The notes under the pieces are model-generated. The model saw only the letters and a list, made by a program, of their open reading frames with translations, had not been told where the DNA came from and did not search any database. The position numbers and the translations under genes were made by a program. From an uncultured Alphaproteobacteria bacterium (GTDB lineage Bacteria; Pseudomonadota; Alphaproteobacteria; Bin95): a stretch of DNA of 41,927 nt. The stretch is taken from the NCBI GenBank assembly GCA_938084065.1, contig CALKDI010000007.1, positions 1 through 41,927 on the forward strand, in the 5' to 3' direction. Positions 3,221-41,927 of this stretch are shown here, piece after piece; position 1 is the first letter of the stretch; the number at the start of each line of letters is the position of its first letter.

Positions 3221-3330
3221 TAGCGCTATAATACGGGGCAGAGGTCTGCTGGGTCGTTGCTCAACCGGACGAATCCGGGCTACATAAGCGACGCGACGCT
3301 TGCTCCGCAGCTTAGGACTTTGAAAAAATC

Positions 3331-4878: not shown

Positions 4879-4894
4879 GAGGTAGAATGAGGCC

Positions 4895-6592
4895 ATGCTA
4901 CGCCAGCTGGCCATTAAACGCGTTGCTCTGATCGACGATCTCACGCTGGAATTTACCGGCGGGCTGGGCGTATTGACCGGAGAAACCGGCGCAGGCAAAT
5001 CCATCCTGTTGGATTCGCTAGGACTTGTGCTCGGTGCGCGAGCTGACGCGGGGTTGGTCCAGGCTGGTGCTGACCGAGCCACGGTCAGCGCTGTTTTTTC
5101 AGAAGATGCCGTTGCTATCGCTTTGCCCTACCTGGAAGACGCAGGGCTGGAGCTGGAGCCTGGGGAAGATCGGCTGATCTTGCGTCGGGTCCTCTCTGCC
5201 GAGGGCCGAAGCCGAGCCTATATCAACGATCAGCCAATTTCCGCAGGCCTTCTGCGCCAAATCGGGTCGCGGTTGGTGGAGGTGCAGGGCCAGTTCGACT
5301 CCGGCGGCCTGACAGACCCTGCAGGCCATCGCGATCTACTGGATGCGTTCGGCGGACTGGCCAAGCAACGCGGGTCTGCGGCTGAGGCTTATCGGACCTG
5401 GCAAGACCTGGACAAATCGCTCAAGGCACAACAGGAGGCGCTAACCAGCTCACTAGGCGATGCAGATTGGCTACGCCATGCCCTGAGCGAGTTAGAGGAT
5501 GCCGGTCCGGAGGCTGACGAGGCCAGCAAACTGGCGGAGGAACGCCGCTTTCTGCAAGCTCAGGAGCGTATTCTGGAGGCTATCAAAGGCGCGCAGAATG
5601 CCGTCGCCGGTAAGAACGACGTGGCCGGCGCTCTCCGCACCGGCATGCGCACGCTGGAGCGGTCGGCAGACAAAGTCGGTGAGCGGTTCCAGCCTGCCAT
5701 CCTAGCGCTGGAGCGTGCTGCGATCGAGTTCGACGAGGCGTTAACAGCGCTGGATGAGCTGGCGCGGGACGTTGACCTAGATGGCTCACGACTAGATTTT
5801 GTCGAGACCCGCCTGTTCGCCCTGCGCGACCTCGCCCGCAAGCATCGCTGCGAGCCCGATCAACTGGCCGCTGTTCAAGAAAAGCTGGCAGAGAACCTGG
5901 AAGCACTCGAACGCGCTGATCAAGCATTGGAAGAAACGCACCAGGCGGTGGCGGAAGCGCGAGTGGCTTTCGAGACTGAAGCAGCGGCCCTTTCTAGCGC
6001 ACGCACCGAGGCCGGGGTCCGGTTGGATAAGGCTGTGGCCGGAGAGCTGGCGCCGCTGCGCTTGGAAAAAGCGGAATTCCGCACCGATATCGAAGAACTA
6101 CCCCCAGACCAATGGGGTGCCACTGGAGCAGACCGCGCGCGGTTCTCGGTGCGCACCAATCCCGGCATGCCCTATGGCCCGATTGAGCGCATAGCCAGTG
6201 GCGGCGAGCGAGCGCGGTTCCTGCTGGCATTGAAGGTGGTGCTGGCCGCGGCAGACCCTGTCGGCACGCTGGTGTTTGACGAGGTCGACGCCGGCATCGG
6301 CGGCGCGACGGCAGCAGCAGTCGGTGAGCGACTGGCACGCCTGGGTGATGACGTGCAGGTGCTGGTCGTGACCCACTCACCGCAAGTCGCGGCCCGCGGT
6401 GTCAAGCACATGCATGTGCGCAAGGCTGACGTTGATGGGCACACGCGGACCAATGTCTCAATCCTGGCCGATACCGAACGGCTGGAAGAAATTGCCCGCA
6501 TGCTGGCCGGCGAGATCGTGACCGAGGAGGCGCGGGCGGCAGCGGTTCAATTACTGTTGCCCGGTGGGGGAAGCGGCAAGACCGCGGCCTGA
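4895..6592 (+). CDS. recN: DNA repair protein RecN
   Basis: Walker A GETGAGKS, coiled coil, ASGGE signature, FDEVDAG, VTHSPQVAA. Confidence 0.97.
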   Translation: MLRQLAIKRVALIDDLTLEFTGGLGVLTGETGAGKSILLDSLGLVLGARADAGLVQAGADRATVSAVFSEDAVAIALPYLEDAGLELEPGEDRLILRRVLSAEGRSRAYINDQPISAGLLRQIGSRLVEVQGQFDSGGLTDPAGHRDLLDAFGGLAKQRGSAAEAYRTWQDLDKSLKAQQEALTSSLGDADWLRHALSELEDAGPEADEASKLAEERRFLQAQERILEAIKGAQNAVAGKNDVAGALRTGMRTLERSADKVGERFQPAILALERAAIEFDEALTALDELARDVDLDGSRLDFVETRLFALRDLARKHRCEPDQLAAVQEKLAENLEALERADQALEETHQAVAEARVAFETEAAALSSARTEAGVRLDKAVAGELAPLRLEKAEFRTDIEELPPDQWGATGADRARFSVRTNPGMPYGPIERIASGGERARFLLALKVVLAAADPVGTLVFDEVDAGIGGATAAAVGERLARLGDDVQVLVVTHSPQVAARGVKHMHVRKADVDGHTRTNVSILADTERLEEIARMLAGEIVTEEARAAAVQLLLPGGGSGKTAA

Positions 6593-11472: not shown

Positions 11473-12258
11473 TCAACCGAGCGGGGTGAACCGCATTTCT
11501 TCGCCATTCAGGCTGATTTGCAGCCGCTGGCCGATCAAAGCTGGATCAACATCGTCTCGCACCCGGTACAGGCCTGCGATGGAGATCAACTCTGGATCGA
11601 AATTCAGGGCGAAGATTCTGGCTTCGTCAAAGCCAGAAGCGCCCGCAATGGCGCGACCGCGCAACGCGCCGTACACATGTACATGGCCATCGGCGATGAT
11701 TTCCGCACCAGCGTTGACGGTTGCGGTGCAAATAATGTCCCGCCCCTGTGCATAAATGCGATTGCCGGCGCGTACCGGAGTGGTGACCAGCAGCGCGGGT
11801 TGCGGTTCAACCGCAGCCGATTCGGCTTTGCCTTGGCCAGATTCAGGCTCCGCTACTGCAGCAATGGGTTCAGCAACGGTCAGCTCGGGCACCGCCGGCT
11901 CAATTTCTTCCGACACCTGCGCAGTCTTTGGCTTGAAAAGCTGCTGGCCTTTGTTCAGCTGCGAAAGGCCTGCAGCAGCTGCAGCCTGCCGCAAGCTGCC
12001 GGTCCCGCCAGTTGTCCCGACTGGAACCAACCGCAGGCTACGCAATCCTTGTGCCAAACCGGCAAAATCAGGCTGGCTACCATTTGCCGGCAGATCATCA
12101 AGCCCCAGTACTATCGGTGAATCCCGCAGAAAAGCTGGCGATTGCTGGATCAACCGCTCCAATGCTGGAACGACGATCTCTGGCGCGCCATCGCGAAGCT
12201 GCAGCACCACCATATTAAAATTGGTACCGCGGATAGCGAAAGGTTGAGGAGGCGCCAT
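11473..12258 (-). CDS. minC: Septum site-determining protein MinC
   Basis: PVRAGNRIYA, GAEIIADGHVHVYGALRGRAIAG, ELISIAG beta-helix. Start placed at MAPPQPF. Confidence 0.93.
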   Translation of the reverse strand: MAPPQPFAIRGTNFNMVVLQLRDGAPEIVVPALERLIQQSPAFLRDSPIVLGLDDLPANGSQPDFAGLAQGLRSLRLVPVGTTGGTGSLRQAAAAAGLSQLNKGQQLFKPKTAQVSEEIEPAVPELTVAEPIAAVAEPESGQGKAESAAVEPQPALLVTTPVRAGNRIYAQGRDIICTATVNAGAEIIADGHVHVYGALRGRAIAGASGFDEARIFALNFDPELISIAGLYRVRDDVDPALIGQRLQISLNGEEMRFTPLG

Positions 12259-12719
12259 GCTAAGAGAATTCCACCAACGTTCAGGCCGGCCATGTGGGCG
12301 CAGGCTTGCTATTGAGATAGTCTTTGCTCTAACTGCCCTGCGGCGTAGCGTCGACCGCCTGGTTACGGGTAGGCGGCGATCTATGATCAAATTCGCTGGC
12401 ACCCGCTGCATACCTGCCACCGCGAGGGCTATTGAAGGATAGAGCTTTTTAACAGGAAAATCGCACTATTTCAGATCGTTACTTGACCACAGCCCTCACC
12501 ATTAAAGATAGCCAAACTGCGCCTCGTTGCCATGATCTAGCGTGGCAATACGGCCTAACGATGAACCAATTCGGCAGCGCAGTGGCAAATTTGAGATCGT
12601 TGCCGAATCAGGGGGTTAGAATCATCTGGACCGGGACGCCAGCAGCCGTTCCTAACATAGTTGGCTTATAGCACTTTCGGCTGCTACGGCCCGCCGCACG
12701 ACGGTTGCGGTGCAGCATG

Positions 12720-12748
12720 TTGATATTTCCGCTCCCGGCTTCTAGGGT
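12720..12748 (+). promoter_or_regulatory. Putative sigma70 promoter of serC-serA
   Basis: TTGATA-N17-TAGGGT about 80 nt upstream of the serC ATG. Confidence 0.5.
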
Positions 12749-12825
12749 TCGCCGCATTCCGCATTGCGGAACTTTGGCCCGCCACCCCTCTGGCCGATAC
12801 CGACCTCTTTTAAAGGTTTGGACCC

Positions 12826-13977
12826 ATGCAGCAGCCGTCTCTTAAGCCTGCCAGCCCCAATTTTTCGTCCGGTCCCTGCGCCAAACGGCCTGGATGGACA
12901 CCCGCAGCGCTATCCAATGCGCTGCTGGGCCGATCGCACCGATCTGACCCAGGCAAAGCCAAACTCGCCGCGGTGATCGACAAAACGCGGGCTCTGTTGA
13001 GCATCCCCGATGATTACCGCATAGGCATCGTGCCGGCCTCCGACACCGGCGCCGTCGAGATCGCGCTCTGGTCGATGCTGGGCGCCCGCGGCGTAGACGT
13101 GCTGGTGTGGGAGAGCTTTAGCAGCGACTGGCTCGGCGACATCCAAGGGCAATTGGACCTGGATGACGTGCGGGTGCTGAAGTCCGACTATGGCGCACTG
13201 CCCGACCTCTCCCAAGTCGACCCGGCACGGGATGCGGTGTTCGTCTGGAACGGCACGACCTCAGGCGTTCGTGTTCCGAACGGCGACTGGATTGCGGCGG
13301 ATCGGGAAGGCCTAACCATCTGCGACGCGACCTCCGCGGCGTTCTCTATGGATCTGCCATGGGACAAGCTGGATGTGGTCACCTGGTCCTGGCAGAAGGC
13401 TATGGGCGGCGAGGCTGCACACGGCATGCTGGTCCTGAGTCCGCGCGCTGTTGAGCGCCTGGAGAGTTATACCCCGCCCCGTCCAATTCCTAAGGTGTTC
13501 CGCCTGACCAAAGGCGGTAAGCTGACCGAAGGCATCTTCCGCGGCGAGACAATGAACACGCCCTCTATGCTGTGTGTCGAAGACGCCCTCGACGCTCTGG
13601 ATTGGATCGCCAGCATTGGCGGTCAACCGGCCTGCAAGGCGCGGTCAGAGCAATCCCTGGCGCATGTCGCAGCCTGGGTTGAGAAAACCCCGTGGGCAGC
13701 ATTTTTGCCAGAGGTGCTTGCCACACGCTCCAGCACATCGGTGTGTTTGACCATCCAAGACACTGACCTGGGCGACAAAGCGGCTGAAATGCCTGCACGC
13801 ATGGCGAAATTGCTGGATGCAGACGGCATTGCCTACGACATCAACGGCTATCGCTCGGCCCCGCCCGGCCTACGCATTTGGTGTGGCGCGACTATCGAGC
13901 CTAGCGATGTTGCCGCGTTATTACCTTGGCTCGACTGGGCCTTTGCCTCCGTTAAAGCCGACCTGCTCAAGGGATAG
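12826..13977 (+). CDS. serC: Phosphoserine aminotransferase (alphaproteobacterial/Methanosarcina type)
   Basis: [34 protein letters not shown] lysine, NTPSML. Confidence 0.95.
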
Positions 13978-13983
13978 AGCACT

Positions 13984-15558
13984 ATGCCAAAAGTTCTGAT
14001 TGCCGATGCGCTCAGTGAGCGTGCCGCCGCTATTTTTACAGCCCGTGGCCTGGAGGTTGATGTCAAAGTCGGCCTGAAGCCGGACGAATTGCTGGCCATT
14101 ATTGGCGAGTATGACGGCCTGGCGATTAGGTCCGCCACCAAAGTGACGGCCGACGTCCTGGCGGCAGCGCCAAACCTCAAAGTCATCGGTCGTGCCGGCA
14201 TTGGCGTTGACAATATTGACGTCAACGAAGCTACCGGGCGCGGCATTGTCGTGATGAACACGCCTTTCGGCAACACCATCACCACAGCCGAGCACGCAAT
14301 AGCGATGATGTTCGCGCTGGCCCGGCAAATCCCGGCAGCCGACCGCTCAACCCAAGCTGGCAAGTGGGAGAAATCCCGCTTTATGGGCGTTGAGGTGTTC
14401 GGCAAGACACTGGGCGTTATCGGCTGCGGCAATATTGGTGCGATTGTCGCCGAGCGTACCCTTGGCCTGCGCATGAAAGTGGTGGCCTTCGACCCGTTCC
14501 TATCGCCAGAGCGAGCCGTTGACCTGGGCGTTGAGAAGGTTGAGCTGAATGAGTTGCTGGCCCGCGCCGACTTCATCACCCTGCACACGCCGATGACGGA
14601 CCAGACACGCGGCATCCTGAACGCTGAGACCCTCGCGCAATGCAAACAGGGCGTGCGGATCATCAACTGCGCCCGCGGCGGCCTTGTGGTCGAAGAAGAC
14701 CTGCGGGCAGCCTTGGATAGCGGCCATGTGGCTGGTGCTGCGTTCGACGTGTTTGTGAACGAGCCAGCCAAGGAAAACATCCTGTTTGGGCTCGACAACG
14801 TTGTAACCACACCGCATCTGGGTGCCGCGACGGAAGAGGCACAAGAAAACGTCGCTCTGCAAATCGCAGAGCAAATCAGCGATTATCTGCTGACCGGTGC
14901 CGTATCCAACGCGCTGAACATGCCATCCATCAGTGCTGAGGAAGCGCCACGGCTGCATCCGTTCATGGGCTTGGCGGAGCAGTTGGGCAGCTTTGCCGGC
15001 CAACTCACCGAGACCAGCCTGCGTAAGCTGACGGTGGAATATCGTGGCTATGTCGCGGAACTAAACACTCGCCCGCTGACCGCTCTCATTCTGATGGGGC
15101 TGCTAAAGCCGCTGTTGAACAGTATCAATATGGTCAACGCGCCGGTAATCGCGCGCGAGCGCAATCTTGATGTGACCGAGGTTAAGAATGACCAGTCCGG
15201 CGACTTCCAATCGCTGATCCGGGTCACGGTCGAAACCGAACGCCAGACCCGCACGGTGGCAGGCTCCCTGTTCGGCAACAAGTCGCGTGTTGTCCAGGTT
15301 CAGGACATCAATTTCGATGCACAGCTAGGCGCAAACATGCTGTTCGTACGCAATGAAGACAAGCCGGGCTTTATCGGCAAGCTGGGCACCACGTTGGGCA
15401 ATGCCGGGGTCAATATCGCCAACTTCCATCTTGGCCGGTCGCCCAACAATGGCCATGCGCTGGCGTTGGTGGAGATCGATGAGCCTTGCTCCGAAGCGGT
15501 GGCCGACGAAATCGCCGCGATTGATGGTGTCATCCAGACCAAAGTCATGCGGTTCTGA
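13984..15558 (+). CDS. serA: D-3-phosphoglycerate dehydrogenase
   Basis: RAGIGVDNID, GCGNIG, NCARGG, TPHLGA, C-terminal ASB and ACT domains. Confidence 0.96.
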   Translation: MPKVLIADALSERAAAIFTARGLEVDVKVGLKPDELLAIIGEYDGLAIRSATKVTADVLAAAPNLKVIGRAGIGVDNIDVNEATGRGIVVMNTPFGNTITTAEHAIAMMFALARQIPAADRSTQAGKWEKSRFMGVEVFGKTLGVIGCGNIGAIVAERTLGLRMKVVAFDPFLSPERAVDLGVEKVELNELLARADFITLHTPMTDQTRGILNAETLAQCKQGVRIINCARGGLVVEEDLRAALDSGHVAGAAFDVFVNEPAKENILFGLDNVVTTPHLGAATEEAQENVALQIAEQISDYLLTGAVSNALNMPSISAEEAPRLHPFMGLAEQLGSFAGQLTETSLRKLTVEYRGYVAELNTRPLTALILMGLLKPLLNSINMVNAPVIARERNLDVTEVKNDQSGDFQSLIRVTVETERQTRTVAGSLFGNKSRVVQVQDINFDAQLGANMLFVRNEDKPGFIGKLGTTLGNAGVNIANFHLGRSPNNGHALALVEIDEPCSEAVADEIAAIDGVIQTKVMRF

Positions 15559-16574: not shown

Positions 16575-16629
16575 GCGTTAGAACAGGCTCCGTTAGCCCA
16601 AAGCTGCCGAAATCCAGAAAGCCCACGCC

Positions 16630-17775
16630 ATGACAGAAAGCGCTGCCCTGCTGCCTAGCGGCCTGCGAGATACCTTGCCGCCAGAAGCCGAGCATGAGGC
16701 TGAGGTAACGGCCAGTCTGTTGGCGACGTTCCGGCAGAACGGCTACCGGCAAGTCTCACCTCCATTGGTCGAGTTTGAGGCGTCCTTGCTCACGGGCGCC
16801 GGCGCTGCGATGACCGACAAAACGTTCCGTCTTGTCGATCCTGCCTCTCAGCGCACCTTGGCGGTGCGGGCGGACATGACCCCGCAAATCTCCCGCATCG
16901 CCGCAACACGGCTGAGCCGCTGGCCCCGGCCGCTGCGCCTATCCTACAACGGCACGGTTCTGCGGGTCACTGGTGACCAATTGCGGCCCGACCGACAGTT
17001 CCGCCAGGCCGGCCTGGAGTTGATCGGTAGCGACAGCGACGCTGCTGATGCCGAGGCCATCGTCATTTCCGCCGAGGCCTTGACGGCTCTGGGTGTACAG
17101 GGCCTCACCGTCGATCTGAGCCTGCCGCTTTTGGCACCGGCCATCCTCCCTGCCCTATCCCAAGACGGAGCCCTCTCTGGCGAGCTGCGAGAGGCGTTGA
17201 ACCGCAAGGACCAAGCATCAATTGAACGGTTAACCGGCGACGCCGCACCACTCCTGACGCAAGTTATGGCCACGGCAGGGCCTGCTGCGGAAGCGTTGGA
17301 CAGGCTTTCAGCGCTGCCTCTTCCCGATGCAGCTAGGCAGGTATTGGCACCAGCACAGACGTTATTGCCGCTTCTGATGGCTAGCCTTCCAGACCTCGTC
17401 GTGACGCTCGACCCGGTGGAGCATCGTGGCTTTGAGTATCACAGCGGCATCAGTTTCTCGCTGTTTGCCCGCGGCTTGCATGGTGAGTTAGGCCGCGGCG
17501 GTCGCTATTGGGCGACAGCCCCTGGCTTTTCCGGTGAGACGGCGACCGGTGCCACCTTGTATCTGGACATGGTGATGCGCGCGTTGGAGCCAGCGGCAAA
17601 AACCAACCGCCTCTACCTACCGACCGGTACCAGCCCAGCCGAACGCAGGAAGTTGCAGAGCGAAGGGTGGTGGACCGTCGCAAGTTTGGAAGCGTCCAGC
17701 AACGCTGCAACCGAAGCAAAACGCCTAGGCTGCAGCCATGTTTGGCAAGCGGGGGCGGCAGTCAGCGTCGCATAA
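16630..17775 (+). CDS. hisZ: ATP phosphoribosyltransferase regulatory subunit
   Basis: LLPSGLRDTLP, RADMTPQISRIA, RQFRQAGLELIG, FEYHSG, GRGGRY (HisRS-like fold). Follows serA. Confidence 0.9.
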   Translation: MTESAALLPSGLRDTLPPEAEHEAEVTASLLATFRQNGYRQVSPPLVEFEASLLTGAGAAMTDKTFRLVDPASQRTLAVRADMTPQISRIAATRLSRWPRPLRLSYNGTVLRVTGDQLRPDRQFRQAGLELIGSDSDAADAEAIVISAEALTALGVQGLTVDLSLPLLAPAILPALSQDGALSGELREALNRKDQASIERLTGDAAPLLTQVMATAGPAAEALDRLSALPLPDAARQVLAPAQTLLPLLMASLPDLVVTLDPVEHRGFEYHSGISFSLFARGLHGELGRGGRYWATAPGFSGETATGATLYLDMVMRALEPAAKTNRLYLPTGTSPAERRKLQSEGWWTVASLEASSNAATEAKRLGCSHVWQAGAAVSVA

Positions 17776-34163: not shown

Positions 34164-34613
34164 CTAGATATCTTCGCGGGGAAGACCATCCCCCATCGAC
34201 CGCATCAGGTCTAACATCCGCCGCCGAACGGCCGGATCTGGGATAGCATAATAAGCTCGCACCAGCAGCAAGGTCTCCCGCTGCGTCATTGTATCTGCCT
34301 GATAGGGGTTAGGGCTGTCTTCCGCGACGCCGTTCGTGGCGCTCTTCTGCCCATCGTCCATTTCGTCGAAGAAAAAATTGACCGGCACATCTAATGCACG
34401 CGCCAGTTGATACAAACGCCCCGCGCCAATCCGGTTGGCGCCCCGTTCATACTTTTGAACCTGCTGGAACGTCAGATCCAATGCAGAGGCTAGGCGCTCC
34501 TGGCTCAACCCCATCAACGTACGACGTTGACGTACACGGTTGCCAACATGGATATCGACCGCATTCGGCTTTCCTCTGGTTTTCCGCTGCGGTTTTCTTT
34601 CTTGAACGTCCAT
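34164..34613 (-). CDS. XRE-family helix-turn-helix transcriptional regulator
   Basis: VDIHVGNRVR...SQERLA..LTFQQVQKYERGANRI, the usual alphaproteobacterial gene upstream of metK. Start uncertain (up to 34709). Confidence 0.88.
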   Translation of the reverse strand: MDVQERKPQRKTRGKPNAVDIHVGNRVRQRRTLMGLSQERLASALDLTFQQVQKYERGANRIGAGRLYQLARALDVPVNFFFDEMDDGQKSATNGVAEDSPNPYQADTMTQRETLLLVRAYYAIPDPAVRRRMLDLMRSMGDGLPREDI

Positions 34614-34894
34614 CAACTCAAAATCCCCTGGATTTTCTCTTGCGTTTTTTTTTTCGCGCGTCCGGGTCACCAAAACACGCCGCTCATCCCAAATAATATA
34701 TGCATACATCTGTATGGGTCAAGCAAATTCCCGCATGAGGTGAGTGGTTCGATGTCGTCACTACCGAAAGGATGAAATGCTAGCAAACCTTTGTGGCAAA
34801 TTCACGGCTTGGTTTAGCAATTATTTTTCTTTCACTCAAAACGGGAGCGAGCCAATAAAAAACAATCAAATTCGCGATGCCGCCATCTCAATAA

Positions 34895-35823: not shown

Positions 35824-36888
35824 TCATCGATGATCAGCGGCAACCGCCGCCTGTACCGAGGCAAAGCCTCCCGCAGCCAGCAAATCAGCCAGTTCAGCCT
35901 CCACTCGCGCAATAACCTGCGGGCCTTGATATACCATAGCGGTATACAGCTGTAGCAGAGAAGCACCGGCTCGAATTTTGGCATACGCGGACGCACCGCT
36001 GTCTATCCCACCAGCACCAACAATAAAACCGCCGCCGCTGGCCTGCCAGACCAGCCGGACCAGATCGGTTGAGCGCTCGAACACAGGCGGCCCACTCAAG
36101 CCACCAACCTCGCGCGCGCCTGGACTTTGCAATGTCGCCGGCCGTGCAATCGTTGTGTTGCTGACGATCCAGCCATCGACCGCCCCGGTCTTGGTCAATT
36201 GCTCCACGAGACTAGCGGCGGCGGCATCTGACAGATCCGGCGCCAACTTAACCATCAGGCTGCACCGCGAATTCGCCAGGTCTCGAGCATCACGGGCAGC
36301 CTCGACGATCGCTCTTAGACTTTCTTCCTGCTGCAAATCACGCAGCCCCGCTGTGTTGGGTGACGAGACGTTGACGGTGACAAAATCCGCATTGGCAGCG
36401 AATGCCTGCACACCCGCGGCATAGTCGCCTTGAGGGTCAGTGCTATCCTTGTTGACCCCTAGGTTCACCCCGACAACCCCACCGGCCAGCCGCGAATAGC
36501 GCCGAAACAGCCGCAAACGCTCGGCAACGACGGCATGGCCTTCGCTGTTAAAGCCAAAGCGGTTGATAACCGCCTGGTCCTTGGTCAGGCGAAACAGACG
36601 GGGCTTGGGATTGCCGGGTTGTGGTTTGGGCGTCACCGCACCGATTTCGATGAAGCTGGCCCCCATTCGCAACAATGGCGCTATCGCCTCACCGCCTTTA
36701 TCAAGCCCCGCGGCGACGCCGAGTGGCGAGGTCAGTTCGCGTCCAAACCCCTGTGTTGCGAGGATCCGAGGCGGCGGCGGCAAGGTCGGCGCGAGCCCCA
36801 GCGCCAGGGCCTTAACCGCCAAGCGGTGCGCCGTTTCCGGATCAGCCAGCCGCATGACGCGCATCGCCCAATCGTTGAAATAGCTCAT
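35824..36888 (-). CDS. pyrD: Quinone-dependent dihydroorotate dehydrogenase
   Basis: DPETAH, AAGLDK, GNPKPRLFRL, INRFGFNS, NVSSPNT, KLAPD, GGLSG. Confidence 0.96.
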   Translation of the reverse strand: MSYFNDWAMRVMRLADPETAHRLAVKALALGLAPTLPPPPRILATQGFGRELTSPLGVAAGLDKGGEAIAPLLRMGASFIEIGAVTPKPQPGNPKPRLFRLTKDQAVINRFGFNSEGHAVVAERLRLFRRYSRLAGGVVGVNLGVNKDSTDPQGDYAAGVQAFAANADFVTVNVSSPNTAGLRDLQQEESLRAIVEAARDARDLANSRCSLMVKLAPDLSDAAAASLVEQLTKTGAVDGWIVSNTTIARPATLQSPGAREVGGLSGPPVFERSTDLVRLVWQASGGGFIVGAGGIDSGASAYAKIRAGASLLQLYTAMVYQGPQVIARVEAELADLLAAGGFASVQAAVAADHR

Positions 36889-36931
36889 CAACACCACGCC
36901 AGATTGTCAGTTGGAGAGTGGCTAAGGTTTA

Positions 36932-37381
36932 TCAGCCTCCCTTCATCCCGTCCAAGGTTCGCGGCGCCGCAGCATAAAACACAATCTCACCGATCTGGAC
37001 CAAGGGCTTGGTCCCCCGTGCCCAATCAGGCATATCGCCCATCCGATGGAACGCGGACGCGCCTAGGCTCGGGTCTGGAATGCTGCCAGCCAAAGCCCGG
37101 CGCGCAGTGCGAATCGCCATGGTGTGGCTCGCGCTCCCGACCAGCGGCAGGCGCACTGGGTGGGCGCTATCCGCCAGCACCGCGTCGGCGACGATCTGCA
37201 TGCGGTTGCCCGCTCGGGCAAGAACGCACGCCACGCCTTCCATCGCCCGGACATTGCCATCCAGCACAATGGCATCCAGCAGACTGCCCAAATGCTCTGT
37301 CGGGCTCTGCCGTGCGTGTGCAAGCAAAACCGTTTGGCCATACTGATCTTTGGCCGGCTGCAAGGTTGCTGCCAGGGTCAT
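36932..37381 (-). CDS. Degenerate SleB/Hydrolase_2-like cell wall hydrolase
   Basis: C-terminal DPSLGASAFH....PDWARG..P...IGEIVFY resembles DPTxGATHYH...PxWA...IGxHxFY. N-terminal catalytic EARGE and QFS motifs are not recognisable. Confidence 0.6.
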   Translation of the reverse strand: MTLAATLQPAKDQYGQTVLLAHARQSPTEHLGSLLDAIVLDGNVRAMEGVACVLARAGNRMQIVADAVLADSAHPVRLPLVGSASHTMAIRTARRALAGSIPDPSLGASAFHRMGDMPDWARGTKPLVQIGEIVFYAAAPRTLDGMKGG

Positions 37382-37406
37382 ATCGTAATCCTTCAGTTAG
37401 AGTGGG

Positions 37407-38879
37407 TTAGATAGAAAAGTCCGTGTTGGCTTGAACGACACCGCGACCGCGCCAATCGGCGGTGCGGGGGGCGGGTGGTTGGGTCGATAGGCGAACTGGG
37501 GTGGCTGCGATGGCACCGGCGACAGCATCCAAACCATCGTCACGCTGATTCACGCCCGGTCGCCATTCCCGCATTTCCCGGCGGAATGGCGTCTCCAGCA
37601 CACTGCGGTGAGCGTGCAGCAGCCGCGCGGCCAGCGGCACCTCCAGCGCTTGCAGAATGCGCTGATCTTTGTTCTGCCGCGCGTTCGCACTCTGCACGCT
37701 GATGCCTAGGCGCGCGCGGGCCAGCGCCTGACGCAGCAATCCGGGCAAGAAAGCGCCGATGCCATTGGTCTCAATAGTGATCGACGGCAGGTGTAGATGG
37801 GCCGCCAGGCGCGCCACCTCGTGGCATTGTTGACTGGCGGGGTCGAGGCCTGCCGCCTCATCCACCTGCAGATAGGCGACGCGATGCAGCCAGAGGCCAC
37901 CGTCCGCATCGACAAACACGGCTGCAACCACACTGCTATCGCCGCGTCCGACCCGACCAAACGCCGGGTCCCACCAGGCGCTGACTCCGATCATTTGGGT
38001 CTGACCGATCGATAGAATGTGACGCCCATTGCGTTCGATCAGCTCCAGATCATCGTCATAGTCCTGGATCTGATCGGGATCGAAGCGGGTAGCGCTGGGA
38101 GCCGTCGGATGCAGCAGCATCTGGCTGGCAAAGGCTGAAGGGCCGATACGCGCCCTCATCGTGGCGATAGCATCCGGCGGAAACCGCTCCGGCCAGACGC
38201 TGTCACCCTTCGCGGTTAGGATCGGCAATACACATCGTCGGAAACCATCGAGATACGGGGTCTCCTCTCCCACTTCTGCCCGTGCCTGGCGGGCATAAAT
38301 TGAGTAATAGGTGTGCGGCGTGCCGGCATAGATCTGGATGCCGTCTGGAGACACGATATGCTCAATCTCTGCCAACCGATCCCGCAGCCAGGCGCGACGG
38401 GAGGCGGTGCTGGCAGTGTTGGGCACCTCCACGTCATCACAGATCACGGTGTCGGCGTGCGCACCGGTGATGTTGGCGCCGATACCACGGGCCAACAGGG
38501 ACGGATCGCGCCAGGCTGCCTGCCTGGCGACCGTGAACGCATCGTCCGTCCACATCCCCGCCCCTTTGCCGCGCAAAGCCGCGCAAAGCGGATGCCGCTC
38601 GACCACCTGGCGGGCATAACGGCTGAGCTTGGTCGCCAATGCCTGCTCCGCCGCCAGCACCAGGATGCGATGGTCAGGGTCGCGGTACAGCAACCATGCC
38701 GCCATCAACCCCAGCAGAGTGGATTTCCCGCAATTGCGGAAGGCCAGCAGCAGCAATCGCTGCTCGCCCTCCGATAGCTGGCGCGCGATCCAGCAGACTA
38801 GTCGGCGATGGACCGCTGGCGTGGTCTGGCCCTGCCAGCGTTGCCAGAGCAAAGCGAATTCTGGAAAGGATACGGTCAT
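37407..38879 (-). CDS. terL: Phage terminase large subunit, T7 gp19-like
   Basis: LLLLAFRNCGKS (cf. T7 ILQAFRGIGKS), ITGAHADTVICDDVEVP (cf. LTGSRADIIIADDVEIP), YAGTP, nuclease WDPA..GD.S, IETNG, DDGLDA. Confidence 0.9.
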   Translation of the reverse strand: MTVSFPEFALLWQRWQGQTTPAVHRRLVCWIARQLSEGEQRLLLLAFRNCGKSTLLGLMAAWLLYRDPDHRILVLAAEQALATKLSRYARQVVERHPLCAALRGKGAGMWTDDAFTVARQAAWRDPSLLARGIGANITGAHADTVICDDVEVPNTASTASRRAWLRDRLAEIEHIVSPDGIQIYAGTPHTYYSIYARQARAEVGEETPYLDGFRRCVLPILTAKGDSVWPERFPPDAIATMRARIGPSAFASQMLLHPTAPSATRFDPDQIQDYDDDLELIERNGRHILSIGQTQMIGVSAWWDPAFGRVGRGDSSVVAAVFVDADGGLWLHRVAYLQVDEAAGLDPASQQCHEVARLAAHLHLPSITIETNGIGAFLPGLLRQALARARLGISVQSANARQNKDQRILQALEVPLAARLLHAHRSVLETPFRREMREWRPGVNQRDDGLDAVAGAIAATPVRLSTQPPAPRTADWRGRGVVQANTDFSI

Positions 38880-39223
38880 AGTTCCTCCCCTTCATCCACG
38901 CCCTCGCCGGCAGCCAAATCGCGCCGCACATCCGCCAACAGCAGAGACAGATCAGCCGCCCCCTGCCCCGGCTGTTCCGCCAAATGCGCGTGCACCAGGT
39001 CATGCAGGCGAATGAGCGACTGCAGATGGGCGAGCGAGGCCTTGCGCGCGTTTTCCCAGGCGGTAACCTCTCGCGGGCCATCGTCATCACCAGAATCCGC
39101 CTGCAACAGGCGGCGGTAGGACGCGAACTGCGCTTCCAACAACGCGGGCAATCGTTCGGCCAGAGTTGACCAGGGTAGCGGTGATTGATCCGTTGAGTGG
39201 TTGTCCGAACGATCGTCTGCCAT
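38876..39223 (-). CDS. Hypothetical helical protein, candidate terminase small subunit
   Basis: 115 aa, ATGA overlap with terL start. Call rests on position only. Confidence 0.5.
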   Translation of the reverse strand: MADDRSDNHSTDQSPLPWSTLAERLPALLEAQFASYRRLLQADSGDDDGPREVTAWENARKASLAHLQSLIRLHDLVHAHLAEQPGQGAADLSLLLADVRRDLAAGEGVDEGEEL

Positions 39224-39229
39224 GAGCCC

Positions 39230-39541
39230 CTACACCGGGTCGCTGGGCTGCTCGGACGTTTGTGGCGGCAGCAGTTGCAGCTGCTCACCCGCGGCAACGA
39301 CACAACTGGTGCCGGACGGCAACGACGCCAGCAGCGTCCAACTGCCACCCGGCCCCATCCACAGCTCCATCACCTGCCCAGTGTCGGCAAGGCCAAGAGC
39401 GACCTGGTTCTCGCTATGGCGGGCGCTGAGTTGCTCAACAATGCCAGCTCGCGGCCCACACGGCGTCGGCGCAGACTTAGCTGCGCCGGCCATCGCTATG
39501 CTGCACGCGGCCAGGGCCAAGGTTCGTGTTATTTTGGTCAT
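39230..39541 (-). CDS. Small secreted protein with two conserved-looking Cys
   Basis: GGAAGGAG RBS, signal peptide, CGPR..IVEQL...E...GL...GSWTLL...GTSC pattern. Confidence 0.65.
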   Translation of the reverse strand: MTKITRTLALAACSIAMAGAAKSAPTPCGPRAGIVEQLSARHSENQVALGLADTGQVMELWMGPGGSWTLLASLPSGTSCVVAAGEQLQLLPPQTSEQPSDPV

Positions 39542-39560
39542 GGTCACCGGCTCCTTCCCT

Positions 39561-40175
39561 CTAGGCCGCACGCGCAGCGCAAAACGCGCCCAGTTGTGAG
39601 CGGATCACCAAGAAGTCCTGCGCCATGCCCGACAAAAGGCTCAGCCGTAGCAGCACTGGCTGTCCAGCTGCGATACCAGCCGCGGGGCCAGCAGCATCTG
39701 CCAGAGCGGCCTGATAGGCCAGCGCCGCCGACTCCATCGCCCCACCGGAATTCGCTGCAGCCCGCATTTGGTCCAACGCCTGCTCCAGCGCCGTCGGAGG
39801 GACTGCCGGATAACGGGCCAGCACCCGCGCCGTCAGCAATTCAGCCCGATACACCCGGCTGGCAGGCCCGCAATCGGAGCCCAACAAAGCATCAGCGGCC
39901 TTGTCGCCAAGCGCGGCGCAGGCGCTAACCAAAAGCCCCAACGCCAAAGCTGCCGCCATGGTCCACGCCGGCATGCTCGCCTTGACAGGTGTTTTGGTCA
40001 CGGTCGCACCAGCGGTCGGGGTGTGTTCGATATTTGGCACCAGCCAAACAACTCCGGCGGTCAGAACCACTCCTAACGCCTGCTCGAGATCCGGCTCGAA
40101 CGGCACAAACGCAGCGACGAGCTGAACCAGTGCCTGAGCGACAGCTGCCGCCCAAGCTTTGTTGTTTTTCATCAT
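39561..40175 (-). CDS. Holin-like membrane protein with internal lipobox (possible lysis/spanin fusion)
   Basis: Two N-terminal hydrophobic segments ending GVVWLVPN, a Thr/Pro linker, then a hydrophobic stretch with LVSAC and a helical Ala-rich domain. Confidence 0.5.
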   Translation of the reverse strand: MMKNNKAWAAAVAQALVQLVAAFVPFEPDLEQALGVVLTAGVVWLVPNIEHTPTAGATVTKTPVKASMPAWTMAAALALGLLVSACAALGDKAADALLGSDCGPASRVYRAELLTARVLARYPAVPPTALEQALDQMRAAANSGGAMESAALAYQAALADAAGPAAGIAAGQPVLLRLSLLSGMAQDFLVIRSQLGAFCAARAA

Positions 40176-40191
40176 GACGTTGCCTTTTTGT

Positions 40192-40443
40192 TCATATAAA
40201 CATTGAACGCGTGAGCAAGCTGGTCATCAGGCCCAGCATGCTGACGATCAGCAGCCCCAGGACGCTGACGATCCAGCGCCAGATTGAGGCAAGGCGGGTG
40301 TTAATCCGCTCTGTCTGACGCTCTATCTGGTCCATGAAGGCCCGAAGATTGGCGCTACGCTCCTCGCAGTGCCGCTCATGGGAATCCAGACGAGCGGTGA
40401 TTTCGGCGATGCGCTCCCGCGCGTCGGTATCGATATCTGCCAT
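40192..40443 (-). CDS. Phage-type coiled-coil protein with C-terminal TM (XhlA-like architecture)
   Basis: RLDSHERHCEER coiled coil, then WRWIVSVLGLLIVSMLGLM TM. Immediately after the tail-like gene. Confidence 0.55.
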   Translation of the reverse strand: MADIDTDARERIAEITARLDSHERHCEERSANLRAFMDQIERQTERINTRLASIWRWIVSVLGLLIVSMLGLMTSLLTRSMFI

Positions 40444-40447
40444 GCCG

Positions 40448-41927
40448 CTACGACAATTTCTCAACGGTCAACAAGCGGCCCGGCACCCGGCTTTCCAGGG
40501 TGTGCCCTCCGCCTTCGGCCATCCATTGCAGTCGGAAGGTGTTGCTGCCCGCAGCCAGCGTCACCGGCACCTGCGCCATAGAGATCACCGTCCCGCGCGT
40601 GTCGGTCGGCGGCAAGTATTGCAGCGTCTCTGCAATCGCCGCGCCGTTCAGCGTCACCTGGGCCAGGTTCGCGTTGCTGACCGGCGATTGGTTCCCAACG
40701 TGCAAGGAGAAACTCAACAACGCCTGGTCGCCAGCTTCGCCTTGTACCGCCACCTCCTCCGCCAGGTCGGTAAAGCTGGTCGCGGTCGTCGAAACCGTCC
40801 CCGATCCGTGATCGCTGGCCACTACCCGCGGTTTCGGCAGCGTTCGCAACAGGGTCAGGAATGCGCCAAAGGCTGGCGCATAGATCAGGTAATGACCCAC
40901 CGTGCTCGGATGGTTCAGGCCATTGCCACCAGCGCTATCTGGGTTGCTGCCCCAGTCACCCAACCCCAGTAGATCGTCCTCATGCAGCAGCGGACGGGCA
41001 TAGCGGGCCGGATAACCAACCTTCAGCGTGCAACCTATCTGCGCAGCGCCGACCCCGCCCAGGTAGACCCGATAGGCGCAACCGCCATCGGCCAGGCGCG
41101 AATAGTCGATGGTATCGATCTTCAACGTGCCGTTGATCCAGACCCGATGCCGGGCTCCATCGCAGCGCACCCGCACATAGTTATCTGCTCCAACCGTCGG
41201 CGCGGTATCGACCACGTGCGCCACAGACGTGGCCTTCCAATAGATCCGGACGTTCACGCCAGACCATTGTAACTCGTACCGCTCACTCGGCGTGTCCGCA
41301 TCGACGCGGTAGTTGAACGCCAAAACGTCGCCGCTCTGCGCGGGGCGGAAGGTCAAGTACGCTTGGAAATCGGCAGCATTTAGCTTGCGTCGGGGCCGGG
41401 CGACACCGGTAAACACAAGCCGCCCAGAGGTCAGGTTAACGCCACCTGCACTGCCCTCAATTGTATCCCACCAATTGGTGCCGAAGGCGCGGAACGCATC
41501 CTCGCGGAACCAGCGACGACGGCCTTCATCCACACCATCACGCAGGAAATGGTAGACGCGGTTGGCGTCCAACAGAGGCAGCCGGTTCGCCACCGCGAAG
41601 TCGCGCAACACACGATACCGGCTGTCCAACGCGGTTTGCTGCACCTTAAAAGTTGGATCCAGCCGGGTGGGCAGGAAGGTGGTTGCCAATGCTACCGTCG
41701 GCGGCGCTGCCCAGGTCTTGGTGTAGTCATGGAAGCTCTGAACCGCAGTGGCGTACGCCTGATCCGCCATAGTGAAGTTGTTCATGCCGTGCGCCCAAAC
41801 CACCAGATGCGGCGCGGCATCCTCCACATGCTGCCGCCAGGACACACCCAACTGCGAACCATCAGGCCAAGCAACAGAGGGAAATCCAGTCGGCTGCACC
41901 CGATAAAACCCCAGGTCCCGATCGCCT
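40448..41927 (-). CDS. Tail-spike/fibre-like protein with SGNH hydrolase motifs (5' partial)
   Basis: Frame stays open to the window edge (GDRDLGFYRVQPTGF...). SGNH-like VVWAHGMN and NGLNHPS, beta-rich insert, C-terminal beta sandwich (TSFTDLA...LAAGSNTFRLQW). Confidence 0.6.
   Translation of the reverse strand, partial: GDRDLGFYRVQPTGFPSVAWPDGSQLGVSWRQHVEDAAPHLVVWAHGMNNFTMADQAYATAVQSFHDYTKTWAAPPTVALATTFLPTRLDPTFKVQQTALDSRYRVLRDFAVANRLPLLDANRVYHFLRDGVDEGRRRWFREDAFRAFGTNWWDTIEGSAGGVNLTSGRLVFTGVARPRRKLNAADFQAYLTFRPAQSGDVLAFNYRVDADTPSERYELQWSGVNVRIYWKATSVAHVVDTAPTVGADNYVRVRCDGARHRVWINGTLKIDTIDYSRLADGGCAYRVYLGGVGAAQIGCTLKVGYPARYARPLLHEDDLLGLGDWGSNPDSAGGNGLNHPSTVGHYLIYAPAFGAFLTLLRTLPKPRVVASDHGSGTVSTTATSFTDLAEEVAVQGEAGDQALLSFSLHVGNQSPVSNANLAQVTLNGAAIAETLQYLPPTDTRGTVISMAQVPVTLAAGSNTFRLQWMAEGGGHTLESRVPGRLLTVEKLS

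Follow-up and report, generated by a model that had tools for sequence, protein, structure and literature searches.

We identified a 14,864-bp element, located between recR and pyrD of an uncultured alphaproteobacterium, that very likely represents a domesticated, vertically inherited and selected set of particle genes. Our preferred reading, toward which the evidence leans without being decisive, is that it descends from a temperate podovirus (HTVC010P/Hodr type, RNA-polymerase-less, with T7 gene order), is now fixed in the chromosome, is no longer able to integrate, excise or replicate, and makes particles like those of gene transfer agents (GTAs). That these particles carry host DNA is an inference as readily doubted as believed; no particle, packaged DNA or transfer was observed. 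It is possible, but no more than that, that the copy of this species is fully functional today, because its spike gene carries a TAG codon and a frameshifted gp12 allele exists. This element family was described in none of the papers found.

Extent, layout and control of the element

The analyzed stretch of DNA (the window; 41,927 nucleotides) constitutes one entire contig (CALKDI010000007.1, here C7) of a 399-contig draft genome of this species (G000; completeness 94%). A preliminary description of the window had reported a module of seven tightly packed minus-strand ORFs next to pyrD. All seven ORFs were confirmed in place, and the tight packing (overlaps or gaps under 30 nt) held on ORF coordinates, the junctions from the spike gene to pyrD measuring -17, +16, -11, +6, -4, +25 and +34 nt. 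The boundary of the module had to be corrected, as it is cut by the contig end and not by biology: since the window is a whole contig, the seven genes cover no more than the 3′ third of the element. The remaining part was found on contig C187, which exactly abuts C7. A naive join of the two contigs keeps the spike gene in frame and aligned to an independent IMG/VR contig (L081) in a single HSP of 11,478 columns with 99.9% identity. The element is present in a single copy in the G000 genome.

Gene identities were assigned with Pfam, PHROGs and NCBIfam. The 5′ end of the element, 4 nt from recR, carries a CI-like repressor of the LexA-family S24 type (Peptidase_S24, 8.2e-22; phrog_4, 4.8e-27; GDSM motif present), which lay outside the view of the preliminary description and adjoins one divergent sigma-70-like promoter. 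This promoter (TTGAC-N17-CATAAT) is conserved across 16 intergenic regions. The host LexA is encoded by a separate gene on contig C101. To our knowledge, no GTA with a phage-type repressor has been reported, which counts against the GTA reading of the element. Downstream of the promoter follow two small genes and the genes for the portal, a Bbp19-like protein, scaffold, capsid, the gp11/gp12 tail tube and gp14, and then those for an SGNH-esterase spike, membrane/lysis proteins, a small TerS-like protein, a T7-type TerL and a SleB-like hydrolase. They form a single, tightly packed string in the same orientation that ends 34 nt before pyrD. The upstream reading proposed in the preliminary description had thereby recovered the portal, scaffold, capsid, tail tubular A/B and one internal protein. 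Between positions 35500 and 41927, no promoter-like site and two terminator-like sites (4.7 expected) were detected, and neither type of site was present at the junction of the element with pyrD. The GC content was 61.9% for the element, 58.7% for the 16 host genes of the window and 60.2% for the whole genome; GC3 was 70% in the element versus 64% in these host genes, and alanine was not enriched (13.0% versus 12.9%). Of the earlier statement that the genes are "GC- and Ala-rich rather than foreign," the host-like composition held, whereas the alanine enrichment failed.

No tRNA gene was found in the window, C187 or C42, and no integrase gene on C7, C187 or C42; the eight tyrosine-recombinase matches of the genome are located on seven other contigs. 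The upstream contig contained neither a replication gene nor an att-sized spacer. The claimed absence of an integrase, tRNA, att repeat and terminator at the pyrD junction held, and an upstream integrase, replication genes and att repeats, named beforehand as a refuting outcome, were not found. Queries with the gp15-like and gp16-like proteins of phage Hodr gave no match in the G000 genome, and integrase and gp15/gp16 queries gave none in 20 loci of other families. A single-subunit RNA polymerase was not found in a search that lacked a positive control.

The element co-diverged with its host under purifying selection

TerL was present in 28 of 60 relatives, including 9/9 other genomes of the genus and 15/17 of a sister genus; nine of the ten genomes of genus g2 yielded no copy of the element. 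The element occupies the pyrD locus in seven of the eight fetched genus genomes (G002, G003, G004, G005, G007, G008 and G009), and its adjacency to pyrD was also observed in six loci of other families. Gene order was identical in G003, G004, G006, G007, G008 and G009. In every pair, the dS of element genes equaled that of recR and pyrD (0.13 to 0.34 versus 0.20 for pyrD in G005-G009; 0.9 to 2.1 versus 1.26 for recR and 1.52 for pyrD in G000-G009), and both dS and identity of pyrD to relatives tracked the element genes. dN/dS ranged from 0.02 to 0.35 in the pairs G000-G009, G000-G005 and G005-G009 and reached 0.44 elsewhere. A tree of the concatenated element genes (17 rows) and a PNPase tree (26 rows) displayed the same genus clades and inner splits; this congruence with the host tree rests on one marker only and mostly on one family. 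The element set has co-diverged with its host under purifying selection, and the synteny and dN/dS tests proposed earlier both favor vertical inheritance under such selection.

The element family extends beyond this group. Of 401 alphaproteobacterial genomes sampled, 76 encoded the capsid at E<=1e-20, 65 of them with at least 53% identity. Among 20 loci from 17 other families, seven included pyrD, two included pyrD together with the HAD hydrolase gene as in the window, and seven carried a gene of the GTA_holin_3TM family after TerL, as did G021. In the capsid tree, 38 chromosomal copies formed one clade (support, 100/95), and the nearest phage, Hodr, fell outside. TerL shared about 30% identity with its best phage matches versus 46 to 80% among chromosomal copies. 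Patchy presence and a TerL nested among phages, which would have refuted the earlier proposal, were therefore not borne out. Among the 80 best IMG/VR contigs carrying this TerL, most measured 9 to 20 kb, a length that fits the element but not a 35-kb phage.

Genes of the element within the window

Table 1. Element genes and pyrD flank in the window, with positions, strand and main evidence
Feature	Position	Strand	Remark
Tail spike, C-terminal 492 residues of 860-codon gene	40448..41927	-	ORF open at contig end
orf90, coiled coil and C-terminal membrane helix	40192..40464	-	Hydrophobic stretch 58-90
orf204, membrane protein with holin-like N-terminus	39561..40175	-	Hydrophobic segments 7-27, 68-91
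orf113, small exported protein, role unknown	39230..39571	-	phrog_25396, 3.9e-17 (function unknown)
orf115, putative small terminase subunit (TerS)	38876..39223	-	By position only; 4-nt overlap with TerL start
TerL, T7-type large terminase	37407..38879	-	NF033889 termin_lrg_T7, 3.9e-114
hyd149, SleB-like cell-wall hydrolase, last element gene	36932..37381	-	Weak Hydrolase_2 match
Element-pyrD junction, 34 nt	36898..36931	.	No room for att site
pyrD, host flank outside element	35824..36897	-	Pfam DHO_dh, 1.3e-71

The N-terminal 367 codons of the spike gene are located at C187:3-1103. Spike orthologues with 63 to 86% identity were found in eight genus genomes. The part within the window gave no Pfam match at E<=0.01; the G004 orthologue possesses a T7-fibre-type N-terminal tail-attachment domain (phrog_1640, 7.7e-29) and a Lipase_GDSL_2 match (9.3e-10). 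orf90, kept in nine genus genomes with a dN/dS of 0.09 to 0.19, showed weak PHROG matches to a hemolysin (phrog_1193, 8.5e-4), which we take to be XhlA-like, XhlA being part of the PBSX lysis module, and to a holin (phrog_689, 5e-3). We infer that it encodes an XhlA-like lysis-associated protein. An alignment of nine orthologues displayed orf204 as one conserved ORF in which no internal Met is shared; an invariant Cys lies in the third hydrophobic segment of the protein, the C-terminal domain spans 115 residues, and no family was returned by Pfam, PHROGs, NCBIfam and the Atlas. orf113 has a signal-like N-terminal segment and two conserved Cys. It had no match in G005, G007 and G009, and from this absence we consider it dispensable. 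orf115 was kept in nine genus genomes (dN/dS, 0.13 to 0.31); its three-helix model (pLDDT 75.6) had no significant fold match, and only unnamed clusters were found in the Atlas.

The T7-type assignment of TerL, already made from the sequence alone, held in NCBIfam (termin_lrg_T7, 382 bits at a cut-off of 150) and in PHROGs (phrog_38, 2.7e-76). Its Walker A (G51-K52-S53-T54), D148-D149-V150-E151 and nuclease (W302-W303-D304-P305-A306) motifs are invariant in eight aligned copies, and dN/dS within the genus was 0.07 to 0.21. The wall hydrolase claimed for hyd149 was supported by a Hydrolase_2 match of 21.1 bits, below the Pfam cut-off of 27, and by an AF2 model (pLDDT 77.7) whose top three PDB matches were SleB catalytic domains (4F55, prob 0.99; 4FET_A, prob 0.97; all non-SleB matches, prob <=0.04). 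Its dN/dS was 0.08 in the unsaturated pair G005-G009. hyd149 is a putative endolysin, its catalytic acid being unverified.

Proposed mechanism, alternatives and related systems

In the mechanism that we propose, DNA damage would lead to self-cleavage of the repressor in a few cells, and the operon would then make heads and short tails. TerL would pack chromosomal DNA into the heads, since the locus can be neither excised nor amplified, and the lysis genes would free the particles. With gp14 kept and the gp15/gp16 trans-periplasmic core lost, the DNA would reach only the periplasm of the recipient and would be taken up from there by ComEC/DprA, as for RcGTA; this periplasmic delivery and uptake would make the element a GTA-like device. 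The capsid resembles those of 34- to 35-kb phages, so the head may hold the whole locus, unlike that of RcGTA. The earlier inference of a distinct GTA class is supported as a candidate, with GTA function inferred and not shown. As a side observation, ComEC was detected in 10/14 and DprA in 11/14 controls; these genes are nearly universal, and their presence says little.

One alternative, which we regard as unlikely, is a dying defective prophage that was selected until recently and now drifts to loss without present function. It is supported by an in-frame TAG at spike codon 140 (C187:684-686, outside the window; CAG in the closest relative, G009), which was unchanged in all four sequencing runs examined (at most four samples of three studies) and in L081, and by a gp12 frameshift near codon 33, caused by the loss of 5 nt, in runs X4 and X9 (two of the four) and in L081. 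Decay was also observed elsewhere: G002 retains only a remnant in which TerL is frameshifted and the head genes are absent, portal and gp12 are truncated in G019, hyd149 is frameshifted in G004 and orf204 in G007, and one copy of the class sample (G420) contains internal stops; the near-absence from g2 points the same way. Against this explanation, gp12 is intact in G000 and run X7, as is every other G000 element gene except the spike, and the element family is intact across 65 of the 401 sampled genomes. No relaxation was detectable on the G000 branch, where the spike (16:136 nonsynonymous to synonymous codons) evolves no more loosely than the rest of the element (78:524; Fisher p=0.49).

Also unlikely is a role of the particles as a PBSX-like SOS-induced killer or decoy, or in altruistic lysis, with packaging as a leftover and nothing delivered. 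PBSX, a defective prophage of Bacillus subtilis, is SOS-inducible, under SOS-type control too, chromosomally fixed and nonreplicating, and its particles package host DNA. SOS-type control by the S24 repressor, loss of the gp15/gp16 ejection core, the receptor-destroying SGNH spike and the full lysis cassette, with GTA_holin_3TM in relatives, support this view. However, the genes for TerL, portal and scaffold rank among the most conserved, and the catalytic motifs of TerL do not vary, which would be unexpected if DNA content were irrelevant. Killing by a short noncontractile tail alone is not known; PBSX is a contractile-tailed Firmicutes particle that kills without transfer, and its structural genes are not homologous to those of the element. 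A still mobile element, either a temperate phage with early genes elsewhere or a satellite using the replication/ejection functions of a helper, is very unlikely: the CI-like repressor, the complete head, tail and packaging set, the filing of relatives as viral contigs in IMG/VR and the existence of temperate relatives with a T7-type TerL and an integrase (Alcaligenes phage Piluca) speak for it, but neither end has an integrase, att site or tRNA, the locus and its neighbors are the same in species with saturated dS, the copy is single, the queries of the 20 other loci were negative and the chromosomal capsid clade excludes known phages.

The preferred reading, a GTA-like descendant of a podovirus, invites comparison with the RcGTA type (Rhodobacter capsulatus, Caulobacter CcGTA; Rhodogtaviriformidae). 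Both are head-tail-packaging clusters of about 15 kb without integration/replication genes, inherited vertically in Alphaproteobacteria under purifying selection, with a GC content slightly above that of the host, and relatives of the element share the GTA_holin_3TM-family holin after TerL. There is no sequence kinship, GTA_TIM being absent from G000; the element has podovirus architecture, a T7-type TerL and a scaffold gene, whereas RcGTA is of the HK97-type siphovirus kind. RcGTA is controlled by regulators of the host, for example CtrA and GafA, and the element has a CI-like repressor instead; its packaging and transfer are unproven and its head size is unknown. A GTA-like element of Faecalibacterium prausnitzii (FpGTA; PMC12946183) was likewise judged "most likely podovirus-like"; it comes from Firmicutes, has two loci and is backed by experimental packaging data, while the family described here belongs to Alphaproteobacteria, is of the T7/HTVC010P type and lacks experimental data.

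The late region of coliphage T7 (gp8-gp19, Autographiviridae) shares with the element the order portal, scaffold, capsid, gp11, gp12, gp14, fibre, lysis, TerS and TerL; the TerL match is equivalog level, and the gp14 matches are weak. In contrast to T7, the element lacks gp15/gp16, has a Phage_capsid_2 capsid instead of the gp10 type and is of temperate ancestry with a repressor. The earlier label "T7-derived" therefore held only in part, for TerL and the order of the genes. Among phages, the temperate podoviruses Piluca and YeP4-6 (Yersinia) gave the best matches to TerL (29 to 31% over 93 to 99% of the length, far below the identity among chromosomal copies). Piluca also has a small TerS directly upstream of TerL and a CI/Cro switch, but the genomes of these phages measure 35 kb and include genes for a tyrosine integrase, recombination and replication. 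For head and tail, the closest free phages were not T7 but Pelagibacter phage EXVC031P Hodr and other RNA-polymerase-less HTVC010P-type pelagiphages. Unlike the element, Hodr is a 34-kb phage with early genes and gp15-like (783 aa) and gp16-like (1,247 aa) proteins, and its terminase, encoded upstream of the portal, is unrelated to the element TerL at E<=0.01. Identity to Hodr amounted to 50% for the capsid, 35% for the portal, 34% for the Bbp19-like protein, 33% for gp11, 32% for gp12, 29% for the spike N-terminus and 26% for the hydrolase.

Gene content and control region of the complete element

The window is the whole of contig C7 (41,927 bp), one of 399 contigs of a draft genome (G000) that is 94% complete, and only part of the element lies on it. 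Using the complete locus of a relative (G004) as a guide, we located the remainder on contig C187 of the same genome. The spike ORF runs past the end of C7, a simple join of C7 and C187 keeps the reading frame, and the joined sequence matched an independent IMG/VR contig (L081) in a single HSP (99.9% identity, 5 mismatches, one 5-nt gap). Therefore, the two contigs abut without missing bases, and the element spans 14,864 bp.

Features of the element, its flanks, and sites at related loci
Feature	Strand	Size	Location	Matches or remarks
Host core chromosome			window 1-36,897	ligA, pnp, truB, infB, nusA, metK, HTH gene, HAD hydrolase, pyrD
XRE-type HTH_3 gene		181 aa	window 34164-34709	between metK and HAD hydrolase; two genes downstream of element
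recR			4 nt from element	upstream flank
CI-like repressor	opposite	209 aa	C187	Peptidase_S24, 8.2e-22; phrog_4, 4.8e-27; GDSM motif
Divergent control region		88 bp	between repressor and operon	
Two small genes	minus		between control region and portal	
Portal	minus			Head-tail_con, 7e-132
Bbp19-like gene	minus		after portal	
Scaffold	minus		after Bbp19-like gene	
Capsid	minus			Phage_capsid_2: G004 orthologue, 1.9e-82; PF19821 on C187, 4.2e-82
gp11-like and gp12-like tail tube	minus		after capsid	
gp14-like protein	minus		directly 5' of spike	
Spike	minus	860 codons		followed by the rest of the window genes
orf90	minus			coiled coil and C-terminal membrane helix
orf204	minus			multi-pass membrane protein
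orf113	minus			small exported protein; PHROG of unknown function
orf115	minus		overlaps start of TerL by 4 nt	TerS candidate
Variants in natural populations			L027 (G000:C187), 3410 and 7297	
Subclade copies without upstream recR			L015 (G003), 3134-5038; L031 (G008)	
Split TerL			L181 (G113:C4), 4446-5255 and 8636-9220	residues 207-490 and 1-195
GTA_holin_3TM family protein			L034 (G021), 16616-17173	2.9e-10
pyrD at capsid end			L176 (G316), 12198-14981	opposite strand

On the C7 side, an ordinary core chromosome gives way to seven minus-strand ORFs that fill the contig from 36,932 to its end, with junctions of -17, +16, -11, +6, -4, and +25 nt and a gap of 34 nt to pyrD. The preliminary description had reported this tight packing and a T7-type TerL, and both held: the coordinates confirmed the former, and TerL scored 382 bits against NCBIfam termin_lrg_T7 (NF033889), far above the cut-off of 150 (phrog_38, E value of 2.7e-76). 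The Walker A, Walker B-like, and nuclease motifs of TerL are unchanged across 8 aligned copies. The portal, scaffold, capsid, tail tubular A/B, and internal virion genes that the same description proposed to look for upstream were all found on C187, gp14 being the internal one. The wall hydrolase hyd149 scored under the Pfam cut-off for Hydrolase_2, and its structure model (pLDDT of 77.7) had SleB catalytic domains as its sole credible structural matches. We consider orf115 a possible TerS, putatively assigned by position only; its three-helix model gave no BFVD fold match with an E value of ≤0.001, and an Atlas search with orf115 and orf204 returned unnamed clusters only.

Several candidate annotations were rejected. 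An assignment of orf115 to T5_Terminase_small (Atlas cluster, 0.78) rested on a chance-level score, and orf90 reached 19.1 bits against a cut-off of 50 for the "GTA head formation protein" NF048001. Upstream of the portal, a 949-aa ORF is an antisense artefact of dnaX-ybaB-recR, and a 247/183-aa ORF is one of the repressor gene; conservation is 89 to 92% for the 209-aa ORF on the opposite strand versus 50 to 61% for the 183-aa ORF. An 853-aa "tube" ORF in G004 is an over-extension; two genes that overlap at ATGA, gp11 (213 aa) and gp12 (634 aa), are the true ones.

The control region carries a promoter of the type TTGAC-N17-CATAAT, which is kept in 16 copies. No promoter-like sites were found inside the window part of the element, and terminator-like sites were fewer than expected by chance, which fits one long operon. 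The repressor meets the criteria for the CI/LexA family (S24 domain, catalytic serine motif GDSM, and N-terminal DNA-binding region). It is therefore probably of the autocleavable type, with cleavage itself inferred from sequence alone; a PDB sequence search with the repressor gave no match. The host LexA, with a LexA_DNA_bind domain, is encoded by a separate gene on contig C101. Exact copies of GAAC-N7-GAAC, which we take to be the LexA box, occurred at one position of the repressor/operon intergenic region in 4/8 sister-genus copies and in G045 (background rate, 1 per 25 kb). None of seven control regions of the genus, that of G000 included, contained the exact box, and we therefore do not claim direct LexA control for this genus. 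The XRE-type HTH_3 gene between metK and the HAD hydrolase is conserved within the genus.

Missing functions and comparison with known particle systems

The preliminary description had proposed searching the upstream contig for an integrase, replication genes, and att repeats, and none were found. Replication genes are absent from the element, there is no room for att sites at the recR or pyrD end, and no tRNA was detected in C7, C187, or a further contig, C42. The same three contigs lack a tyrosine recombinase, all 8 matches in the genome lying on 7 other contigs. The absence of an RNA polymerase, which had likewise been raised, was supported at the locus only: there is no room for a single-subunit RNA polymerase gene between recR and pyrD. 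The genome-wide profile search (PF00940) gave no match in G000, but 0/14 controls were positive, and it was hence uninformative.

The element thus meets the GTA criterion of phage-like structural and packaging genes in a chromosome without means of integration, excision, or replication. It is also inherited vertically and kept under purifying selection, a further GTA criterion. It does not meet the criteria for a functional temperate prophage: an integrase, att sites, and replication or early genes were not found at either end, and presence is not patchy. The sole temperate-phage trait left is the CI-like repressor. As a T7-like system it qualifies by its TerL and by the late gene order portal-scaffold-capsid-gp11-gp12-gp14-spike-lysis-TerS-TerL and fails by lacking the gp15/gp16 core (ejectosome). 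The gp14 gene is directly followed by the spike gene, with no gene between; in Pelagibacter phage EXVC031P (here called Hodr), the 34-kb free phage closest in head and tail genes, large internal core proteins of 783 and 1,247 aa lie between gp14 and the fibre. Searches by tblastn with the gp15-like and gp16-like proteins of Hodr found no match in G000 or in 20 loci of other families, a weak test for such fast-evolving proteins. A further GTA criterion is a head too small for the encoding locus. Here, the locus measures 14.9 kb, and its capsid is 50% identical to that of this 34-kb phage, the closest cultured one, a sign that the head may be larger; sequence alone does not reveal the T number.

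The contrast drawn earlier with the siphovirus-like RcGTA-type agents also held. TerL, capsid, and portal belong to families other than those of RcGTA, the RcGTA criterion was not met, and the RcGTA domain GTA_TIM (PF13547) had no match in the 94% complete G000 (a Caulobacter control was positive), and G000 has no RcGTA-type cluster. Few independent GTA lineages are known, and those studied to date in Alphaproteobacteria resemble siphoviruses. The full-text literature searched, supplementary files not being covered, yielded no account of an alphaproteobacterial GTA-like family of T7 or HTVC010P type; the podoviral prophages treated in PMC10386132 are PhiGT1-like temperate podoviruses and not this element family.

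Descent within the family and state of individual copies

TerL was present in all nine other genomes of the genus and in 15/17 of the sister genus; among ten genomes of another genus in the family, one had a weak, different TerL match. The eight genus genomes that were fetched share the same gene order, with pyrD following the hydrolase in seven and the eighth contig ending within TerL. Element protein identities track those of pyrD and recR, and the dS of the element equals that of its flanks in every pair. The dN/dS ratios of the element were 0.02 to 0.35 in the three pairs closest to G000 and up to 0.44 (G004-G007), with 0.03 to 0.15 for recR/pyrD. The checks of synteny and dN/dS proposed in the preliminary description thus support vertical inheritance and purifying selection, and patchy presence among close strains, which it held would refute such descent, was not observed. 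Its comparison of a TerL tree with a host species tree was run as a concatenated portal-capsid-gp11-gp12-TerL tree (17 rows) against a PNPase tree (26 rows). The trees agreed on both genera and on the splits within them, a congruence that rests on this one host marker.

The pnp genes of two members of genus g2, G010 (L067, C141) and G012 (L068, C25), show one in-frame TAG each, and that of G008 is split and shows a TGA. In the subclade of G003 and G008, the repressor is preceded not by recR but by genes for a luciferase-like monooxygenase and a 2OG-Fe(II) "Oxygenase-NA"; across the genus, it is the pyrD side alone that does not vary. No remnants were found within 1.5 kb upstream of pyrD in five genus g2 genomes, and loss cannot be distinguished from never having been present there because the neighbourhood differs.

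Spike codon 140 is TAG in G000 and CAG in its closest relative. Contigs from four public runs, which represent at most 4 samples of 3 studies, carry the TAG unchanged, as does L081. A 5-nt deletion near codon 33 frameshifts gp12 in two of these runs, X4 and X9, and in L081; gp12 of G000 and of run X7 does not have it. Run X9 also showed an in-frame 6-nt insertion in the portal. On the G000 branch, the spike had 16 nonsynonymous versus 136 synonymous codon changes, no looser than other element genes; therefore, either the damage is of very recent origin or the spike remains functional although split. Decay was also seen elsewhere: G002 retains only a remnant, the G019 copy has truncated genes, and G004 and G007 have one frameshift each. 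RNA-library contigs of two runs (X7 and X16) cover most of C187; however, we make no claim of expression because DNA carry-over is possible and contigs give no expression level.

Distribution in Alphaproteobacteria and proposed mechanism

Of 401 alphaproteobacterial genomes sampled evenly, 76 had a capsid match (E value of ≤1e-20), nearly always in single copy; with a threshold of ≥53% identity, 65 genomes, or about one in six, carry the element. Among the carriers are some very small genomes as well as marine and estuarine lineages that are abundant. In the capsid tree, all 38 chromosomal copies formed one clade (100/95) with Hodr outside. The earlier proposal was that a TerL nested among free phages would refute domestication; in this tree, the chromosomal capsids were not nested among phages. 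Twenty loci of 20 kb from 17 other families were compared. TerL lay near the capsid gene in 17/20, portal and scaffold were often elsewhere, and queries for integrase and gp15/gp16 matched none of the 20. pyrD fell within the 20 kb in seven loci, two of which held both pyrD and the HAD hydrolase, as the window does. In one copy (G316), pyrD adjoins the capsid end of the cluster rather than following TerL, possibly an inversion with pyrD linkage retained. TerL is split in one of the 20 loci, from a 0.9-Mb genome (G113); the pieces are ~3.4 kb apart, and the portal adjoins the C-terminal one. A GTA_holin_3TM family protein follows TerL in 7/20 loci, and in many copies its gene stands directly behind that of TerL or of the hydrolase; none was detected in the genus of G000. 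This family is named after the release holin of RcGTA, to which the element is otherwise unrelated.

The gene content, single repressor and promoter, absence of mobility genes, and long-term selection are shown. Their simplest explanation is one old domestication beside pyrD, after which the element descended vertically, was rearranged, and was lost at times. The alternative, repeated site-specific integration at pyrD, is disfavoured, as no integrase was found and the element co-diverges with its flanks. Under the domestication reading, RecA-stimulated self-cleavage of the repressor would switch on the operon in some cells, heads would fill with chromosomal DNA, and the cells would lyse; chromosomal packaging is proposed because the locus cannot excise or amplify. 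Particles with gp14 but without gp15/gp16 would bring DNA as far as the periplasm, where ComEC/DprA, proteins that are present but near-universal, would take it up. Packaging of random host DNA and its delivery to recipients are inferred from sequence alone, without particle DNA data.

A bolder reading, possible as a whole but tentative, is that a single very old domestication predates the split of many alphaproteobacterial families and has been anchored beside pyrD ever since, a T7-order podovirus having become an SOS-triggered GTA of a new, independent class. Because the element cannot excise, its T7-type terminase may start at a fixed site in the locus and package successive headfuls of neighbouring core chromosome in situ, as a hard-wired lateral-transduction engine. 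The outer-membrane protein gp14 would have been kept and gp15 and gp16 lost, leaving periplasmic delivery only, followed by ComEC/DprA uptake.

If the element is a GTA, it would constitute a second, unrelated alphaproteobacterial lineage, podovirus-derived, and provide a natural experiment in which different viruses were domesticated in one host class to a similar end state. It would also connect the SOS response to gene exchange in a way that can be tested and alter estimates of the host share in virus-like-particle DNA of seawater and guts. The conserved position at pyrD is an uncommon kind of molecular fossil, from which a domestication could be dated. IMG/VR holds 356 TerL relatives, most of the best 80 on 9- to 20-kb contigs; such loci are filed there as viral contigs and therefore also contaminate statistics on viromes and prophages. 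A 5-kb "Bacteriophage sp." record from human faecal samples (MT838907.1), with a capsid 57.7% identical and thus closer than that of any cultured phage, may represent part of a chromosomal element of this kind and not a phage.
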